Origin: Raillietiella orientalis
Taxonomy: Eukaryota
DNA: 64,000 bases
Direction: 5' to 3'
Assembly: GCA_036172245.1 (NCBI GenBank)
Contig: JAYWIR010000008.1
Span: 1,550,001 to 1,614,000 of the forward strand
Within the stretch, counting starts at the first letter, position 1. Each line of letters opens with the position of its first letter. This document shows positions 22,301 through 57,480 of this stretch, piece after piece. The notes under the pieces are model-generated. The model searched no databases and was not told the origin of the DNA. It saw only the letters and a program-made list of their open reading frames with translations. The position numbers and the translations under genes are program-made.

Positions 22301-24570
22301 AAGGGGAAGAGAAGGATGGCCCGGTGCAGAGACCTCGAGGTGCCATAGGGCCCGAGAGAATCATCCCAACGAGCACCTCGAAGCACCAGAGGACGAGGAT
22401 GCATCTTCGTTCAGTGACTGAGCGCTTCCCACTTGCCAGCTGCTGAAGGTCCTACACTCCCTGCAGAGTTTGCTTATTGGTGAACTCGAAATCCTGCTGC
22501 CCGTTGAGTCCTTGCTGGGGGTAAGCGCTGATCACACATAAGATACAAACCTGTGGAAGAGCGGGAGCGAATAGCGGGAGGCTGGTCGAGAACGAGGAGA
22601 TCGAAAGCCGGCATCGGTGAAAGAGGCAACATGACTGGACGGAAGAGAATGGTATCTGAGTAAATGAGGCATGGGTTGTGTGGCTTGAGAAACTTGGCCG
22701 AAGGAAGGTTCTGTGGTTGCACTGATTACGGCTTTAGCTTCCTCATCTCGTGAGAGGTTTCCTGCCCCGCCTCGTCAAACGGGGCCAGAAGATTCAAGCC
22801 AGATGTGAGCCTGGATCCTGGAGCGAACGACGACCTCGTGCACTGTGCACTTCCAGCTGCTAAGAACCTTCACGTTATCGGACTGGACGTTCCTGAACAG
22901 CATCAGGCAGCTCTTCAAAAAATGCGTCAGCCTGCCAGGAGGCATGCAGGCCGTTCAACGAGATGCATCAGCCCAGCTAATTGACATAAAGAGGCCGACA
23001 ACTTCGCAACGGGCAGTTGCTTTAAATGCAACCTCGCTAGATCTAGCCACGCAAGAAATTATACCCAAGAACCGTACTCTTGGCGGTGAGAAGGAGGCCA
23101 CCACGTTCTCCGCCGACGGATGAGGATCTGGGAGGGAAAATTCACGTCCGAGGTGATCGATTTAACGTGCCCAACGGCGACATCAAGAGCATTTGGGCAG
23201 TGGTCAGACGGGGATCCGACCGAACGAAGGTAAAGCGGACCCTTGAAAAGGCAGTGCCGAAAATCAGATTTGAGAAGGAGGGGAGGAGCTGGAGTTGCCA
23301 CATAAGCCACATCTGACCTACGTTTGACACACTCATGAGAGAGAAAGTGGCCTCCAGCCTACGCAGGATTCAATGCAAGGCAGCATGCGTATTTTCTGTC
23401 ACGAAACACCTGCTTCGAGGAATGGCCATGCCCGGCATTTGGACGCTGGTCGACAGAGCATCCTGACAATGCTTCCTCATCTTCCATGGTCTCGAGCCTC
23501 AGGGCATTTTCTGTCCAACGGCAAGCACCTCCTGCTTGTAGGCTACAGACTGACTCACGCGGCAGAAAGTTTCCTGACTGCCTGTGGGGTGATGTCTCCC
23601 AGGGATGGTGTTCATCTCACGTATAAGGGGTGTGTGGCGCGGGAGGAATGCCTAGGACACATTCCCAATGGCATGCATTAACAAAAAAGTCAGGCACGGA
23701 GAACAGGTGTGCCAAACCAAGAGACCTGCTCTGGAACATTGGGAGTTGATGGTCTCCAGCCGCAGTGGTTTCCCTCGAGCAAGTGGCCTTCTTGCTTCGT
23801 TGAAGTGGCTCTCGTTCCTCTCGCTGGGAGATCCTTCCTGCCTCCCGCACTGGAAAGGCAGCATTCAGAAAGGCCACTAGGATGGCTCGGTGGGAATATC
23901 GGGGAACAGTGGTCAGCATCAGCGTTAGAGACAGGCCATCCCAAGCTGGGGAAGATGCCGGCATGTCAGAGGAGCAAGACTGGCAGCACAAAGCTGGCCT
24001 CGCCTTATCCAAATGGACCATCTCATTCCAGCACTGGATGAATGGATGCAAGGGAAGGAGATTTGCGGCAGTTTGCGCTGTTCCTCAAATCGTCCAGCTT
24101 TGCAGCTGCTTGTAAGCCGCTCACGCACGTCACCAAATAAGGCACCGGACTAAGGAACGCCGCCACGCCTCAGCGGGAAGGGTGCCCAAAGAATGTACCC
24201 ACTGCGATGAGAAACTGCAGCACGTGCTTCTGGAATGGGGAAAGCGGCGTCAGGGATGGAAGTGCGCTACTGAGAAAATCCAGCTCCCCTCTGCCACCCC
24301 ACAGGACCTATTTCGAGAAACTCTCGCTTCTCTAGTTTCCTGCCTACTCTCTGGCGAGCAGCCGTGACCGCCAAAATGTAGAAGGAGGATGGTCCAATCT
24401 GGGATGTGAAGTGCCAAGGGGTGATCTTCAGTCGATTTTAGGCAAGCTGACCCGACACCGCTAAACGCACTTCATTTCCCATCGCTTTCCTTCAAAATGA
24501 GAATCGTCGGGAATATTTTCAGTACCACGAGACTGTCCCCTCTCATCCCCTATTTATTTATTTATTTATC
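16400..24570 (+). mobile_element. Degenerate L1/Tx1-like LINE (ORF1 knuckle, APE, RT, CCHC), interrupted by other sequence
   Basis: ORF1-like DCVEEPCTNLYSEDNLHAD (~17033). APE-like IAAL/KET (~17876), CLAADL (~18538, cf. GDFN) and DVW (~18902). WNAFEA (~19174, cf. WDAFKA). RT-like GFIPPR (~22169), LSDWTFL (~22875, cf. DRVDWxFL), FSAD (~23106) and CLPHWKG (~23838, cf. CLPKxxGG). Knuckle CTHCDEKLQHVLLE (~24194). A (TTTA)4 tract at ~24551 is a possible 3' tail. Confidence 0.7.
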
Positions 24571-28400: not shown

Positions 28401-29640
28401 TTCCTCTAGGAAAGCAGCGCACCCAAGACCGGAGTCGTGAGCATGACGCCGGTCGCAGGATCATGAACGTGAGGTGGATCTACGCGACGAACAGAGTCGT
28501 GTGTTCCTTCCGGGGCGCTGCTTGGTCCGCGATGCTTCTCTGGTTCCTACCTTGGAAGCACCACGGAGAGCTGAAGACATCCGCCGACGTCGGTGGCGGA
28601 TCACGTGAAAGTTCTTCCTCCCTATTCAGAAAAGTAGTGTCCCTGGTAGCCGGAAGACGCGATAGGACGCCGAGGCCGAAGGGGAAGAAGAGCTGGCAAC
28701 GCGCCCACGCAGAGGGTAGGCTCGAAAGGTTGGCGTCGCCCCTGAACACCAAAAGCAACTCCACAGCGTCATCAAAATACCCTCAGACCTCCTCGTCCTT
28801 TCCAGGAACCGCCGAACGGAGGAATTGCTGTATGCTGGAGGGGAGACGAAGCAAAAATCCTCTCAGGTGGCCAAGGGAACCCTCTCGATGCTCAGGAGGA
28901 GGGGTAGGGATGGATGACGTGGCTGCTTGACAGAGAGTGTCGAAGGAGATAGCGACCTCTTCCACCTTACCAGGCAAAACCTTTCAGATAAGGGGAGGGC
29001 CAGAGGATAAGTTGTGTGATGATGGTGGGAGGACGCGCGCTCGCCATCTGGATGCTTTGCAGTCTTTCGGGCGGGAGGAGCCGTGCCGGTTCCGTATTTT
29101 TCTTAATAATTCAGTCATTATTTTTCACGAAATATGCTCATTAAAATATATACTATTTGGGTTAATAGTTTCATTTTTACGTACGTCATTTTACTTGTTC
29201 GTAATTGCTCGATTGAAATATCACTGTGCAACTTTTCTAACGAAATCTTACTCAAATGTGGAGCTACTGATAATTTATAGTTTGTTTTATGGTGATTATT
29301 TGTTTTAATAAATAATTAAAATTATTGATAAGATACTGACTATAAGTTTTATTACTGCAAAAACATTTTTGAAAGTATGGAGTAAAAACCTCTTCGTACT
29401 TTGCTAAGCTTTTTCATTACTATTTCTTTTTTGGTATAATCAAAATAAGTGTCAACCATAGTAATAAAAATACACCACTAATGCCATCCATTTTGTTGCA
29501 GTGTCTGAACCAGCAGTTAATTTATACACACCATCACTTGTTGCAAAGTAAACATTGTCATTTTTATCTACTGCCATGCTTACCGCAGCTCTCTTCTTTC
29601 TTCCTCCTCTCCACAGTTGTGACTCCTGAGAGTGGAATCA
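25500..29640 (-). mobile_element. Degenerate APE-RT LINE (Jockey/I/R1/Tad-like), with the endonuclease split by an AT-rich insert
   Basis: In order on the minus strand: QESQL (~29618), VEEVAI..IPTPP (~28965), LLVFRGDAN (~28755, cf. GDFN), TTFLN..TSADV..ADQ (cf. LN..IDL..SDH), ISGPPD (~27597, cf. PGPDG), KAGKTRKDSGTLRDLSL (cf. KPGK..YRPISL), FRKGPS (~27257), QKTPDHV (~27211, cf. KAFDxV), QYLGM (~26273) and GIDPIEV (~25771). Confidence 0.75.
29095..29583 (-). pseudogene. AT-rich bacterial-like (Mollicute/Spiroplasma-like) insert with a degenerate beta-propeller repeat fragment
   Basis: GC drops sharply to roughly 25-30% by eye. Minus strand 29580-29491 reads SMAVDKNDNVYFATSDGVYKLTAGSDTATK and continues MDGISG after a 1-bp frameshift in an A-run. 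Confidence 0.7.
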
Positions 29641-36039: not shown

Positions 36040-36300
36040 AACCAGATTGAATCATTATCGTGATTTGGATACATGAAAGATGACAGCCTCTGCCATTAGT
36101 GCACGCCAGCTCTAACGGGGGAAGATTCCCTTTGATTAATTGCCTGCGAAAGAATTATATAAAGATGACAGCTGGAGCAGATAAGAATCCGAGCTTGTCT
36201 TTCGCAGAAGAAAGCACTAGTACAGAGAGCAGTGAATGGTGAGTAAAAGTCTGCCGCATTCTTAAGATGCCTGCGTGTGGCCATGTAATTCCATCATTAC
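36040..36300. promoter_or_regulatory. Candidate cis-regulatory module (Hox/TALE, E-box and GATA sites)
   Basis: AAAGATGACAGC occurs twice (36076, 36161), with TGATTAAT (36133), CAGCTG (36169) and AGATAAG (36179) in a complex AT-richer island. Confidence 0.35.
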
Positions 36301-38088
36301 GCTGAAGATGTTTTTTTTTTTAAAAAAAAAAAAAGAAAGAAAGAAAGAAGGAAGGAAAGAGAAGAAAAGAAAAGGAAAATCGCGCTTTCTCCGTCAGTAA
36401 ATGGATTTTTTTTTTGGAATTATCATCATTACCGAAGCGACACTCAATCTCCAGAGCTCTTCTGAGTCTTCATCCCTGAAAGCTCATGTGTTCTTTCCGC
36501 CGAGGTTGCGGCGACGTTCTCTCGCCCATTCTGCATTCCAGACACGTGACCTGCCGGGAACCATCCCAATGCTCGAGGGAGCGGAAGGAAACCACAGATG
36601 GAACCGGACAAATTGTGGCAGAGCAATGGAGAATGTCCCCCCGGCCCTGCACCGCTTTCCCGACGGGAAAGCGGAAAAGAAGCAGGCGCCATTCGGACCA
36701 CTTTCCATCTTCACCTGCTCTCCTCTCGCGTCGGGTTCTGCTGGGATAGCAGAGGGAAAATGGTGGCCGGGAAATAGAGACGGCAAGTCCTGGATGCTCG
36801 AGGCACGGTGCCGATTAGTGCCAGAACGCTGCTCTTCGGGGAGGGAAGCTCAGTTTCGGCAAGCACCATAAAATGGGAACCGGTTGAAAGCCAGAGACCC
36901 TTCCCCACCCCCTTCCCCTTCTCCGTCTTCGGGCTTCGGAAAGCTCGTTCCGTGCCGTGACAAACGCCCGGATCATCCGGGAAGCGGCGCGGAAGAGAGG
37001 CATGGAGCTGTTGTGTTCCCTGCCACGAGAAGGTGGGCGGCTCCCACGCCCCGCTCCGTGCTCTGCGACTGCACAGGGGACGTCATGGTGGCCGCCTGGA
37101 AGGAAAGTTCCAGCGAGCCGGCTGCGAGTCTGGGCGGGCGGTGAGAGGCGCAGCGGCTGGTACCTCTGGAACGAAGAGTCATTTCCACTGCTTCCCCCGA
37201 AAGACTCCGTGCTTGATCTCCTGGGAGGCGGCATGAATCGCATTCTGCCTCGCGCGGCTGAGCGCCGGCGTGTGCTGGCTTGCGAGCCGCAATAGCGCCC
37301 TCAGCTTGGTCGCTTCCGTTCAGGGATCCCAGCTACATCGAAAAGACAAGGAGCCTTCCGCTCCACCTGGGTAGGTGCGCCAAAAACGACCGCTCAGGGA
37401 CGCCGCAGTCTCCCTCAAGGATACCTCCCCCATCCGTTGGAATCCCTCAGAGAGCCTCAAAGGTTCCTTCTCGCTTGCACGGATGCTCCCACCCGGCTCC
37501 ATCTATAGGAAGAAACCGCGCTGCAAAATGCACGCGAGGATGGCCAAGAGCACGTGCTGCGCACAGACGTCTATGCGCTTCCGTGTTGCCCCATTGAAAG
37601 ACATCGTGCGTGGAATTCGTCTTTGAAGCCTTGAACCCCATCCAGAGCTGGGTTTGCTTACACTGGATAACAACGCACACGTTGATGTCCGTCAAAGTAT
37701 CCAGCGGCCGTGCCGTCCGGCACGAATCGGCATAGCTGCTGGATGGCTCCCCCCTCAAAAAAGACCTCCCTTCAAATGACCTCACTCTGGTCCATAGAAG
37801 CCCATGCCATGCGGGGAGACTGCACCGAGCTTCGGCTCCACTTTCTCACCGATCCGCCTATCTCTTTCCTACTTCGGAGTTACCTATGCCACACTAGCGG
37901 GATACCCGTTCTCGGTACGAGGCCCATCAAGGAGGGAGGAGAAAGAAGGCTGCTTCTGCAGTGCTGCTGGGTGTGATCCCGAGAGTCCCAAATCCTCTCA
38001 CTTAGCACTCTTTTGTATGATTAGTCCTTGGTGTCGAGTCTCAAGGAGACCACCTGTCGGCTCTGGAAGGCGGATGCGAGGGACCAGT

Positions 38089-49900: not shown

Positions 49901-52339
49901 AGCGGCCGATTCCGCTCTTCGGTGGATCGCGCTTCGAGAAGACGCACGCATAAGTGGAAACCATCTGTTGTTAGCTCGGAAAGATCGTCAACCGAGAAAC
50001 TCCCCAGATAGGGTAAAACGATCCTTACACATATTTTCCGAAATTGGTTTTTTGAAAATGACCAGTTTCGGGCCGTATAAATCAACAGCAGGAATGCTGA
50101 CGAGCCTGCGAGCTGCTCGTGGTGCGCCTTAATGCAAATCCTTAAGCTGGAGAGTTTTCCCTCAGCGGAATGGCTGTAAAACATCCGGCGCTGCAAACAG
50201 CCGTGATTACTCGAGAGCGGTCACGTCCAGCGACTTTCTAGTTCAGTGTTTACCCAGTCTCTCCTGTGTCCCACTAATCACCTCATTTCGCCAACAACCA
50301 GCTGGTTAATGATGATTTCCATATTTTTTTTTTTTTTTTTGAGGGGGGCGAAGGGAAGGGGGGGTCATATTGGGGGGGGAAAAAAAAAAAAAGCTTTCCT
50401 CCTGCGCCGACGAATGAATGAGAGTGTTCGCGAGAATCATTGGCATTCTTACATTCTTATATCCAAGTGCAGTCCCGTTGCTGTGGTTTCAAGCTCGCTT
50501 TTCGCAGACGCCGTCGTTGCCCGGCGAAACTTTCATTTTCAAAGGCGAACGACATTGTTGCGCGACGAGACCTTCGCTTCCTCCCATTGTCGAGGGAGAA
50601 AACTTTCGCTTTCGAAGACGGACTTCATTGTTGCGCTGAGGGACTTTCGATTTCGACGGCTTTCCCGCTTCCGGCACGATTTCTGCGTTTTCCATTCCTC
50701 GAGATGCGAGAGTGATTCAGAGCGCTCTGGTCAGAATTTTTTTCCCGCCTCAGGACACGCTCGCGATTGTTTTGCCTTCCTACGGGAAAGAATGATGTAT
50801 GGAGGACCACTGTAACGTCTATGCTGCCGACATGTGAGGCTGCAACGACCCTCATCTCCCAGGCAGATCTCTGTTCCCCATGAACGAATGGCCAGCATAA
50901 ATCAGTTTTTTTTTTTCTTCCGGAAGGAGAAGAAAAAAAGCTACGCAGCAATTGCATATAACAGTTTCTTCTTCCTCCTTCGTGCGTTCCTTCTTCCTTC
51001 TCAATAGCTAATTGGACTTCCCACATGAGCAGCCTCCGCACCCGTGATTTCAGAATCAGAAAGTAAAGAGAAAAATGAGGGGGGGGGGATGTACGCATGC
51101 GTTGCGAAAGATTTCAGAAAACTCGAGCGGGGCAGGCAGCAGGGCATCCGCCGCCCCACGCTCTCTGAGTCGCAGACGCCGATCGGTTTTCGAGCGCACG
51201 CGCGTGGGCCGTCGATCCCCATCCCTAGAACACCCTTCGTTCCTCCTCCGTCCTGGAGCTGCGGAACCTTTTGCTTTCTGCTCCGGAATTTGAACCTGCG
51301 CCGTTTTGGTGCGTATCCTGCCACCTTGGGACCAGGATGAGACCGCAAAAAACCCTTCTCTTGATTCCTTCCCCTTTCCGTTTCCTCCCTCCTTCAAAGG
51401 GAATGGAGAAGGCTGTCGCAGAACGCAGCGGCGACGGAGGGACATTTCCGAATAGGTCGAAGCTCTCTCAGCTTTCGAGAGCTTCGACCTATTCGATCAC
51501 CCACTCCGGCAAAAAAGGGACCTTTCCTCTCAGAGCTGTTCGGGAGGGCAGAAGCATCGATGATGGTGCACATCTCACGCGGGGTAATGAATACATAATC
51601 AGCCGCTCTGGACACTTACGATGAAGATGCGACCCATTCCGGTTCTATTCTCTTTGCCGATGTTAATTGTTTGTTTCTCGTAATTTATTTCGACGGGATC
51701 TTCTTCCAGAGAAAACAGCGGAGGGCGAAAACCAAAAAAAAAGAATGATGAGATGATGAATCACGGATCCTTTTTCCCGCGGGATGATTTCTGGCAAGTT
51801 CGGCAACATGCATTAATGAAGATGCCAGCTGTCACCACGGAGCTCTCTCTCTCTTCCTTTAGAGATCCTCGCGAGTGAAACGTTCTGGGAGACTTGGAAA
51901 GGAGGGAGGGAGGAGAGAAGAGGGGGGAGGGGAGAGAAAGCTATGGGGAGGGACCCTCGAGAGAAAGAAGTCCCGACGTCTCGCAGATGCCGAGTAGATT
52001 CGAGAGTAGCATCAAACACGACGCGCGCTTCGGAAGATAGATCACGCGAATGGGAAAGGGGGGAACAGCTGGCTGCGTTGCACCGGGTCGTGGTCAGGAT
52101 TGGCCCGTCCTCTGGCCAGGATTACCACCCCGAACGCGTCTCTAAACAGGCAAGAAAATGCGAAGGCGGCTATCTTCTTTTTCCTTTTTTCCGCCCCCCC
52201 CCCCCTTCCCTTCCCTCCCTCCCTCTCCAGATCGCTCCTTCCTTCACACTCTGTGCGTTGTCTCGAAAACTTCACGCCGCAAAGGAAGGCGGTAGGATCC
52301 ATTCGGAGGTGCAGATTGGGAGCCAAGCCATGGCGAAGG

Positions 52340-52570
52340 AGTCGGCCATCGAGACGACTGTCTTCGTCTTCGCCGCCATCACCATCATTGCCATGACTGT
52401 GATCATTACAGTCGCTGCTTATGGTGTTGTCATCATCATTGCTATTATCACTGCCCTGCTATTTCTGTTGCCATTACTGCTGTTGTTATTTATGCCGCTG
52501 TTGCTGCAAATGTCATTGTTATCGCCGCCATGAATTGTATTGTTGCGATCGCTGCCGTTGCTATGCTGCT
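52340..52570. repeat. Cryptic trinucleotide tract (ATC/ATT/GTT/GCT)
   Basis: Degenerate triplets such as gtcatcatcattgctattatc and ctgctgttgttatt. Confidence 0.7.
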
Positions 52571-53599
52571 GATTTCCTCCTTCGAGGGAGAAAATGGAGA
52601 AGAGGATGGAACGGATCCCCGCGATGATGATCAGCGAGTGCTCTCGCCTCCCCTGTAAGCGTTCCCGACCATCCCGAAACCCTTCCCTCTACCTCGAAGG
52701 GTAAGGGCGAAGCGCTCCCAGCGGGTCTTCCTCCGTCAGCGCCGTGAGCCCGAGGGCATAGACATGAGACGAGGAGGGACTTCCGCGGGAGCCAGCTTGG
52801 AGGGACGCGGAAGACCCGAGACCGGCAGCCTTCGATGCGGATGGGGAAGAGGGATGTGCGGAGCTCCTCTAGGGATCATTACGGGAACGTCACCGCCGAT
52901 CTCGAGTGTCGACCAGTCATAAAATTTAATTTATGGAAATCGATGTCTCCAGGCAACGGGCAGCCTCCGAAAGATGCTTCGAAGATTAAAGCCGAAGGCA
53001 ACGAAGGATCGGAATGGAATTTTGATGGAGGGTAGAAGACGCAAAAGACACGCTCGATCCACCACCACCCCCCTCCTCTATGATCTCTTCTGCCTCTGAA
53101 ATTTGTTTTTTTGTTTTGGCTGAGTGGGGGCTGAAGACAGCACTCACTATCCCTGAGGTTCCCGGGCCTTCTCTACCGAGGAAAATGCAGGGCACCATCC
53201 CACCACCATCGGCCTCTCCGTTGCCCTCTGCCGCCATCGAAGCCTCTCCCGCCGCTCCTGTGACCGGGAGAAGAGCGACGTCCCCTGAGGAAACGTTCGA
53301 CCTCGAGGAAATCCCTTTCGTTCGGGTCACCTGCACTGCCTCGAAGGAAACCGAGGACCTCCATTCCCACCCGGCCAGAGTCCGAACCCAAGCCGGCAGT
53401 TCCCAAGGGAAGAGTGCGACTGAAAGCGACGGTCTCTCTCGCCATGGAGGGAGGGAGGGGCCGCCGCCTTCTGCCGCTGCCCCTCGGACGGGAGTTTCCT
53501 TCCCCCACCCCATCCTCTCTGTTATTCGCCTTTGGCCTCTTCCGTTCCTCCCAGCTCCCGGAAGATCCGAGCGATCGCAAGCTGCCGAAAGGGACCCCG

Positions 53600-56369: not shown

Positions 56370-57480
56370 GCGCGTATGCACTTGAGACTTGCGTAGATAC
56401 GTACAGCAAGATGGATGCAGATGTATACGCTTGTGCGCATACATGTGCATACATATGTTTGCAAATATATACATTCATATGCCTACAAGCTTTATAAACG
56501 CAGATAAAGGTGTACAGATGTAGACATATATGTGTGTGTGTATGCATATGAGTGCATACACATATGTATACGCATGCATACGTGTGTGAATGCACATGTA
56601 CATATGCATATGCATGTATAAGTATAAGTGTATGGATATCTATGGATATACAGAGATAGATGATACATATAGATGTAGATAGTTATCAATTGATACAGAT
56701 ACAGATATAGATAGAATTAGAAATGGACAGACACAGATATAGATAGGCACAGATATTGATATAAGTATGTGGCTGTGGATACACATAGATGGATTTGGAT
56801 ATAGATATACTATATAAATATAGATAGGTATATAGATATAGACATGTGGATGTAGATATGGATATAGGTGTAGATATAGATGTGGATGTAGATGTAGATA
56901 GAGATAGAGATAAAGGTTGTAGATATACATATGCGTAAATTCATATGTATACTCGGATTTACACATATGTATTTGTATACATATGTGGATAGAGATAGAG
57001 GTATGAGAAGATAACATATATAGATATACATGTGTATGTATACATGTGCGTGAGCTGATATATATATATATATACGATATATATCTACATATATATGCGC
57101 ATCTATGCGCACATAGATGTCTATGTAGATTCACACGTCTATGTGCACATTTTTACGTGTGTGCTTATGAGTCTCTCTCTATATGATACAACGATATCTT
57201 TATAATGCGTAGATAGATAAGATATAGGCACATATAGGTATACACACAAATATATATATATATATATATGCATTTATTTATATATATACATGTATTTATA
57301 TACATATGTATATGTATATGGGTATCATGCATATGTATGTGTAGATATGTTGTTCGTACCTGCGTGCTAAACAAGCGTGTATAAATGCATGTGTGGATGC
57401 ATGCACTCATGTGCAACTGTGTACACGTACGCACATGTGTGCACGCATGAGTGGAGGATACGCGGATGTGCGGTTCGTGG
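56370..57480. repeat. ~1.1-kb AT-rich low-complexity tract (TA/TG/ATAG/ATGT), largely alternating purine-pyrimidine
   Basis: Directly visible (TA)n runs and degenerate ATAGAT/ATGTAT units. Confidence 0.95.

Follow-up and report, generated by a model that had tools for sequence, protein, structure and literature searches.

Insertions of bacterial symbiont DNA into arthropod nuclear genomes derive mostly from Wolbachia. Nuclear copies of mitochondrial and plastid DNA (NUMTs and NUPTs) are captured at double-strand breaks by end joining, and consequently have sharp edges and lack a target-site duplication. Within ant genomes, Spiroplasma or Mycoplasma are given as donors for 37 of the 497 curated bacterial HGT loci, and 36 of the 43 events tested in that study are reported as confirmed by PCR (PMC13320244). 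A family of Spiroplasma proteins relevant here is ScARP/SARP1 (adhesion-related proteins), which is described in PMC2386487 as comprising a signal peptide, 6-8 'sarpin' repeats of 39-42 aa, a 330-aa central region and a variable domain, and as ending in a C-terminal transmembrane helix followed by a KR-rich tail. A limited literature search, covering titles and the starts of abstracts, found no report of an ARP/sarpin fragment in a eukaryotic genome.

Here a computational analysis is used to characterize a locus at which these two subjects, symbiont DNA in a nucleus and Spiroplasma adhesion-related proteins, appear to meet. The window (that is, the whole 64-kb stretch of DNA that was analysed, with an overall GC content of 0.573 and zero N) contains a 489-bp AT-rich island that has a GC content of 0.274 and is bordered without gaps by sequence of 57-58% GC, 29 kb on one side and 34 kb on the other (Table 1). 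The explanation favored here is that the island would be a small, defunct stretch of Spiroplasma DNA within the nuclear DNA of a eukaryote, and that about 115 bp of the island would derive from the repeat-encoding part of a gene for an adhesion-related protein (ARP/ScARP-type adhesin). Two components of this explanation differ in strength: a Spiroplasma origin of the ~115 bp at 29469-29583 is firmly supported by sequence comparison; that the island as a whole represents a real, recent capture of Spiroplasma DNA in nuclear DNA is plausible, though unproven, and is assigned a probability of roughly 0.55.

Table 1. Features of the AT-rich island (coordinates are those of the window)
Feature	Position	Strand	Basis or remark
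Whole AT-rich island, GC 0.274	29095..29583	.	Abrupt change in GC at either end
One sarpin-type repeat (propeller blade) of a Spiroplasma adhesion-related protein (ARP/ScARP) gene	29469..29583	-	blastn, BLASTP, nhmmer, phmmer
Frame break: one base missing from a Thr codon relative to two aligned Spiroplasma genes	29495..29496	-	DNA alignment A1, ORF tables
Shifted-frame tail GVFLLLWLTLILIIPKKK, then stop at 29420-29422	29420..29476	-	ORF 29420-29521
AT-rich remainder, 374 bp, GC 0.246	29095..29468	.	No detectable relative, no supported coding frame
Weak second repeat-like motif NSIYFNEHIS-W(TGA)-KIMTELLRKI	29095..29157	-	9/21 identical to P0008 residues 169-189

A preliminary description of this DNA had noted an abrupt, complex AT-rich block of ~490 bp in a GC-rich background, and the measured composition agrees: the 1-kb flanks have GC contents of 0.579 and 0.582, and in 200-nt windows GC is 0.25-0.27 across 29100-29499 versus 0.56-0.64 on either side. 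The composition steps at 29094/29095 and 29583/29584 are abrupt, the switch being completed within a few bases, and the boundaries given earlier (29095..29583) coincide with them to that same precision. No flanking direct repeats, target-site duplication or terminal inverted repeats were found at the island, nor any transposon hallmarks; the flanks have no duplicate copy elsewhere in the window, and there is no repeat common to insert and flanks at the junctions. On the minus strand the right junction (29577-29583) reads ...GCTGCG/GTAAGC, so that a GGTAAG resembling a 5' splice donor coincides exactly with the boundary, and on the plus strand a polypyrimidine run stands at the start of the right flank and ends in CAG at ~29616; both resemblances to splice signals are probably coincidence.

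Six stretches within the 64 kb, including the island, fall below a GC content of 0.38 in 150-nt windows. Two of the other five (36192-36481 and 56380-57436) reach a comparably low GC content and, when read, proved to be simple-sequence or low-complexity DNA; the remaining three, which were not read through, only dip to 0.35-0.37. Of these AT-rich stretches, the island alone was seen to consist of complex sequence. Regarding the two patches themselves, the first contains, at 36300-36420, T(12) and A(14) followed by (GAAA/GGAA)n, with a second T run ~70 bp further on and a GC minimum for the patch of 0.28; the second consists of ~1 kb of AT-rich, degenerate, microsatellite-like DNA made of TATG/CATA/GATA-type units, with GC down to 0.21 and 65% GC sequence on both sides, and is unrelated to the island.

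On the minus strand the coding piece reads (V)SMAVDKNDNVYFATSDGVYKLTAGSDTATK, the same peptide as had been reported earlier, and its repeat portion (29469..29583) reads (V)SMAVDKNDNVYFATSDGVYKLTAGSDTA-T-KMDGISG, starting mid-repeat at the right junction. When positions 29080-29600 were compared by blastn with 72,556 plasmid records (7.3 Gb), the significant matches were to Spiroplasma adhesin genes: the best was the 'adhesin' gene of S. phoeniceum plasmid pSPh535 (81.9% identity over 29481-29573, E 4e-15, or 1.4e-20 when that record was searched alone), and there were further matches to the adhesin gene of the Spiroplasma endosymbiont of Nesidiocoris tenuis (sNten; 77.7% identity, E 2e-11) and to many S. 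citri plasmids (72-75% identity). Spiroplasma accounts for 23 of the 233 plasmid records matched, the others being short AT-rich matches, and a collection of phages yielded nothing better than E 0.5 for the same region. The preliminary description had suggested a resemblance to Spiroplasma repeat proteins and had named BLASTN as a way of checking it; with best plasmid matches to Spiroplasma adhesin genes at E 4e-15 to 2e-11, that resemblance is borne out and the repeat can be specified as sarpin-type. Comparing genetic code 4 with code 11, on the other hand, is uninformative because the homologous stretch has no TGA codon.

Protein-level comparisons point to the same family. The two annotated homologous genes, from S. 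phoeniceum and sNten, encode proteins of 840 and 804 residues under translation table 4, both of which have N-terminal arrays of the same repeat as the island peptide. BLASTP aligns this peptide with residues 98-127 of the sNten protein (P0002), where 22 of 30 residues are identical (E 9e-13), and aligns it more weakly with further repeats of that protein (seven more at E <= 1e-3); its identity to individual repeats of proteins P0001-P0003 is 63-73%. A phmmer search of 1.84 billion representative proteins returned 141 matches at E <= 1e-3, 11 of them at <= 1e-10 and the best at 8.8e-39. Among the best 20 of these 141, 11 clusters name an organism, which in all 11 is a Spiroplasma (citri, poulsonii in four, phoeniceum, melliferum and four insect endosymbionts), and 9 are without an organism name. 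A blade DNA profile, for which 14 repeat units were taken from the two annotated Spiroplasma genes, aligns (nhmmer) to 29576-29469 on the minus strand with E 5.4e-19, and the blade protein profile scores 48.7 bits on the island repeat. The full-length Spiroplasma homologues match the Pfam family Reg_prop (PF07494) with 47.6 and 54.4 bits (cut-off 20.4); the island peptide has no Reg_prop match even at E <= 10, a single 30-aa unit being too short alone.

No near-identical donor was found among the genome-collection contigs or the metagenome contigs, which were scanned with the 61-aa frame: the former yielded a single distant propeller protein from Bacteroidia (L003, 40% identity) and the latter a single distant propeller protein (L012, 55% identity over 22 residues). 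A shared-word index of longer proteins gave no match to the 43-aa peptide; the exhaustive phmmer search did recover the family.

Two explanations are directly affected by this homology. The first is that the island is native host sequence, namely an AT-rich intron or intergenic patch whose likeness to a propeller arose by chance or convergence--as might be suggested by the presence of other AT-rich patches in the window and by the minus-strand GGTAAG, a splice-donor form, that coincides exactly with the right boundary. The patches that were read, however, are simple sequence, whereas the island is complex; E-values of 4e-15 at the DNA level (7.3 Gb), 8.8e-39 at the protein level (1.84 billion) and 5.4e-19 for the profile exclude chance; and nucleotide identity of ~80% excludes convergence. 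Judging from these searches, chance similarity between the island repeat and Spiroplasma genes is far excluded, and native origin is the least probable of the explanations considered. The second is that the island is a mitochondrial or plastid fragment, its similarity to the repeat being incidental. Organellar insertions do take the form of AT-rich blocks with sharp edges and without a target-site duplication, which counts in favor of this explanation; yet there is no rRNA, tRNA or other RNA family in or beside the island, a Pfam search of seven frames returns no organellar protein family, even at E <= 10, and for 29469-29583 an organellar source is contradicted by the 78-82% DNA identity of the coding part to Spiroplasma adhesin genes. 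An organellar insertion is thus considered highly improbable. For the homologous part, both organellar origin and native sequence are, on these comparisons, effectively excluded.

Within the repeat, reading across the 1-nt gap listed in Table 1 yields K-M-D-G-I-S-G, corresponding to K-I-N/D-G-I-S-G in the homologues; the earlier reading of MDGISG after a frameshift therefore holds, alignment A1 revealing a 1-nt deletion followed by the same residues as in the homologues. In the uninterrupted frame, by contrast, the peptide reads ...TATKWMALVV... instead of ...TATKMDGISG.... The fragment has its frameshift after 30 codons and a stop 24 codons later; detectable homology, as measured with the blade DNA profile, ends near 29469; and no start codon, signal peptide, central domain or further repeat was found in the fragment. 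In the shifted frame there is a hydrophobic stretch ending in KKK (29476-29423, minus strand), for which comparison with the membrane anchor of P0002 gave only matches of 4-6 residues, with E 0.77 or worse; hydrophobic stretches such as this are expected by composition in 25% GC DNA. When 12 full-length or partial Spiroplasma-type proteins were searched against the whole window (tblastn), 31 of 31 matches fell within 29400-29599, and these searches detected no other Spiroplasma-like piece in the 64 kb. As read from its sequence, the coding piece is not a gene but a broken part of one belonging to this family and, being a single broken repeat, would be non-functional in the host.

The preliminary description had extended its Spiroplasma-like fragment over the whole of 29095-29583; this stands for the ~115 bp at 29469-29583, and does not for the other 374 bp, which are without a detectable relative. 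DNA searches of this remainder covered plasmids and phages and gave only short AT-rich noise (blastn); four of its ORFs had no match among plasmids (tblastn), and two had no relatives among viral contigs. The island as a whole has no Rfam match (E <= 1) and no tRNA, and a Pfam search of seven island frames gave nothing significant (all E >= 0.038 and below cut-off). Scores of the remainder against the blade profiles are matched by shuffled sequences, in 220 of 300 shuffles for the DNA profile and in 38 of 300 for the protein profile (<= 5.0 bits). Nor is its longest open frame (70 aa) significant: under code 11 the longest frame is equalled in 124 of 2000 shuffles that keep mononucleotide composition and in 28 of 500 that keep dinucleotide composition, and under code 4 in 340 of 2000 and 99 of 500, respectively.

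Several candidate similarities within the remainder were considered individually. The sequence ITMVD, previously proposed as the possible start of a second blade, is alignable by eye in alignment A1, but the proposal is not sustained: it lacks statistical support, and the DNA profile stops at 29469. Two repeats picked out by eye, ITMVD..TYFDYTKKEIVMKK at ~29462-29400 and NNFNYLLKQIITIKQTINY at ~29330-29270, were rejected, as the profile tests give no support to either; a tblastn match of protein P0034 to 29270-29365 (E 6e-6) is not relied on, having been obtained with a tiny database and with composition correction off. At the left end of the island, the in-frame TGA of the second motif in Table 1 aligns with a Trp of the S. 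poulsonii protein P0008 (E 0.001 in a single comparison), and the motif is without support from the general blade profile; a TGA read as Trp would fit the mollicute code, but the match is too weak to count and is retained as a lead only. The composition of the remainder is Spiroplasma-like, and it probably shares its donor with the repeat, or else is itself a second scrap that became attached to the repeat. A single donor for the whole 489-bp block is accordingly adopted as an assumption, 374 of the 489 bp being without an assigned source.

The degree of divergence bears on when, and whether, this DNA entered a chromosome. Over 101 aligned bases the island agrees with S. phoeniceum at 80 and with sNten at 78, while S. 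phoeniceum and sNten agree with each other at 78; the GC content over the aligned bases is 0.366 in the island versus 0.347 and 0.386 in the two Spiroplasma genes; and the differences have no AT-to-GC bias (8 versus 6, and 7 versus 9). The island repeat falls within the diversity of living Spiroplasma genes and has not drifted toward the 58% GC of its surroundings. Since it matches living genes both in divergence and in composition, either the DNA arrived in the chromosome very recently or it has never been part of it.

The latter alternative corresponds to an artefact of assembly or library preparation, whereby a 489-bp piece of a co-infecting or contaminating Spiroplasma was placed between host segments through gap filling, polishing, a chimeric molecule, or template switching during whole-genome amplification. 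In divergence as well as composition the repeat cannot be told apart from the genes of living Spiroplasma, just as would hold for a contaminant. Spiroplasma genomes themselves contain truncated or broken adhesin genes: pSci6 is reported to carry two truncated ScARP CDS (PMC2386487), and the protein matches include short fragments from S. poulsonii (98-188 aa). Because truncated and frameshifted adhesin genes are common in Spiroplasma, the broken frame is no proof of decay within a host. An artefact would require, however, two independent false joins returning to the same locus within a gap-free 64-kb stretch; the insert and flanks have no common repeat able to mislead a graph assembler; and the window contains no second Spiroplasma-like piece (all 31 tblastn matches of the 12 proteins being at 29400-29599). 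Host-like sequence is present on both sides of the block in the assembled window, which describes the assembly rather than the molecule; we infer that both junctions are present in the organism's own DNA. Given these considerations, an artefact is regarded as the main rival explanation and a serious possibility, though one falling somewhat short of an even chance.

If instead the island is a genuine nuclear capture, as favored here, then DNA released by a Spiroplasma associated with the host, either within it or alongside it, would have reached the nucleus, where end joining would have captured it at a chromosome break. Such a capture would have to be young, given the divergence and composition described above. 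Neither a target-site duplication nor terminal repeats are expected under this mechanism, because end joining leaves neither.

The DNA surrounding the island provides few indications of the nature of the host. The 150 longest open frames of the window have no Pfam match at E <= 1e-4, and 142 shorter ones (selected as the 150 least RPGSA-rich of 435 frames of 70-143 aa, with eight in the island or in simple repeats dropped) have no significant match at E <= 1e-3, only a sub-threshold C1_1. No reverse transcriptase, integrase or transposase was found by Pfam in these 292 open frames, no tRNA genes were found in the window, and the long frames have no codon-position GC pattern; the most coding-like frame (P0153) has no relatives. 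CpG is not depleted (observed/expected 0.87). Peaks of 3-base periodicity in the window are mostly triplet repeats. The strongest of them, at 52300-52660 (score 9.3 versus a median of 1.0), stems from an imperfect triplet repeat of the ATC/ACC/GCT type, and all frames there are low-complexity runs (I/A/V/T, C/H/Y and S/L); this region may be a repeat rather than an exon. The sole hint of a host exon is an 83-aa open frame at 24116-24364 on the plus strand, with the sub-threshold match to a C1 (phorbol ester/diacylglycerol-binding) zinc finger (E 1.9e-4, 21.6 bits versus a cut-off of 26.5).

Overall, to judge from these scans, the window resembles eukaryotic DNA that is poor in genes or has short exons, with neither CpG depletion nor transposon proteins. 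The lack of recognizable domains and of transposon proteins, together with undepleted CpG, might fit the genome of a coccidian-like or other protist. That the host is indeed a GC-rich unicellular eukaryote, the nucleus of which recently captured plasmid-type Spiroplasma adhesin DNA, is considered unlikely; were it true, the island would represent a Spiroplasma-to-protist transfer and the trace of a cell or body cavity (an arthropod's, for example) shared with a Citri/Poulsonii-like Spiroplasma.

The significance of the island depends upon its junctions. DNA insertions from bacteria into eukaryotes are already well known, and the island, if real, adds no functional consequence. If the junctions are real, it is a relic that records physical contact between Spiroplasma and the host lineage--contact that would be recent, because the fragment is undecayed--and it adds a Spiroplasma donor to the bacterium-to-eukaryote transfers, which are dominated by Wolbachia; a host outside the arthropods would make the case more unusual. 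False junctions would instead mean that Spiroplasma DNA had been present in the material sequenced and that the assembly contains a local error for curators to remove. Either way it has practical value as a marker for Spiroplasma in the assembly and in the raw data.

Compared with known systems, the island most closely resembles, at the level of its coding part, ScARP, SARP1 and SkARP1 (of S. citri, S. kunkelii and S. phoeniceum) and the ARP-like proteins of S. poulsonii and of insect endosymbionts, with which it shares the pattern ..AVD.K.N.YF.T..G.YKL.AGS.T.TKI.GI..; one unit of the sarpin type is present, at 29583-29469 on the minus strand. It differs from the ScARP/SARP family in having one repeat rather than the 6-8 described for these proteins in PMC2386487; in lacking a signal peptide, the 330-aa central region and the variable domain, its frame moreover being broken; in lacking a recognizable membrane anchor or KR tail; and in being located within GC-rich, eukaryote-like DNA instead of on a Spiroplasma plasmid or chromosome. 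In its proposed mechanism, as filler DNA that would have been captured by end joining, it is like NUMTs and NUPTs, from which it is distinguished by a bacterial source and by the absence of organellar genes or RNAs in the Rfam, tRNA and Pfam searches. Its setting is unlike a typical arthropod region, with 57% GC over 64 kb, a CpG observed/expected ratio of 0.87 and no significant Pfam match in 292 frames; and unlike the ant loci that are reported as PCR-confirmed (PMC13320244), its junctions are those of the assembled sequence. In other respects it has the features of arthropod nuclear insertions of symbiont DNA, namely a non-functional bacterial piece that in the assembly lies between host-like sequence, has a donor-like composition and is without transposon hallmarks.
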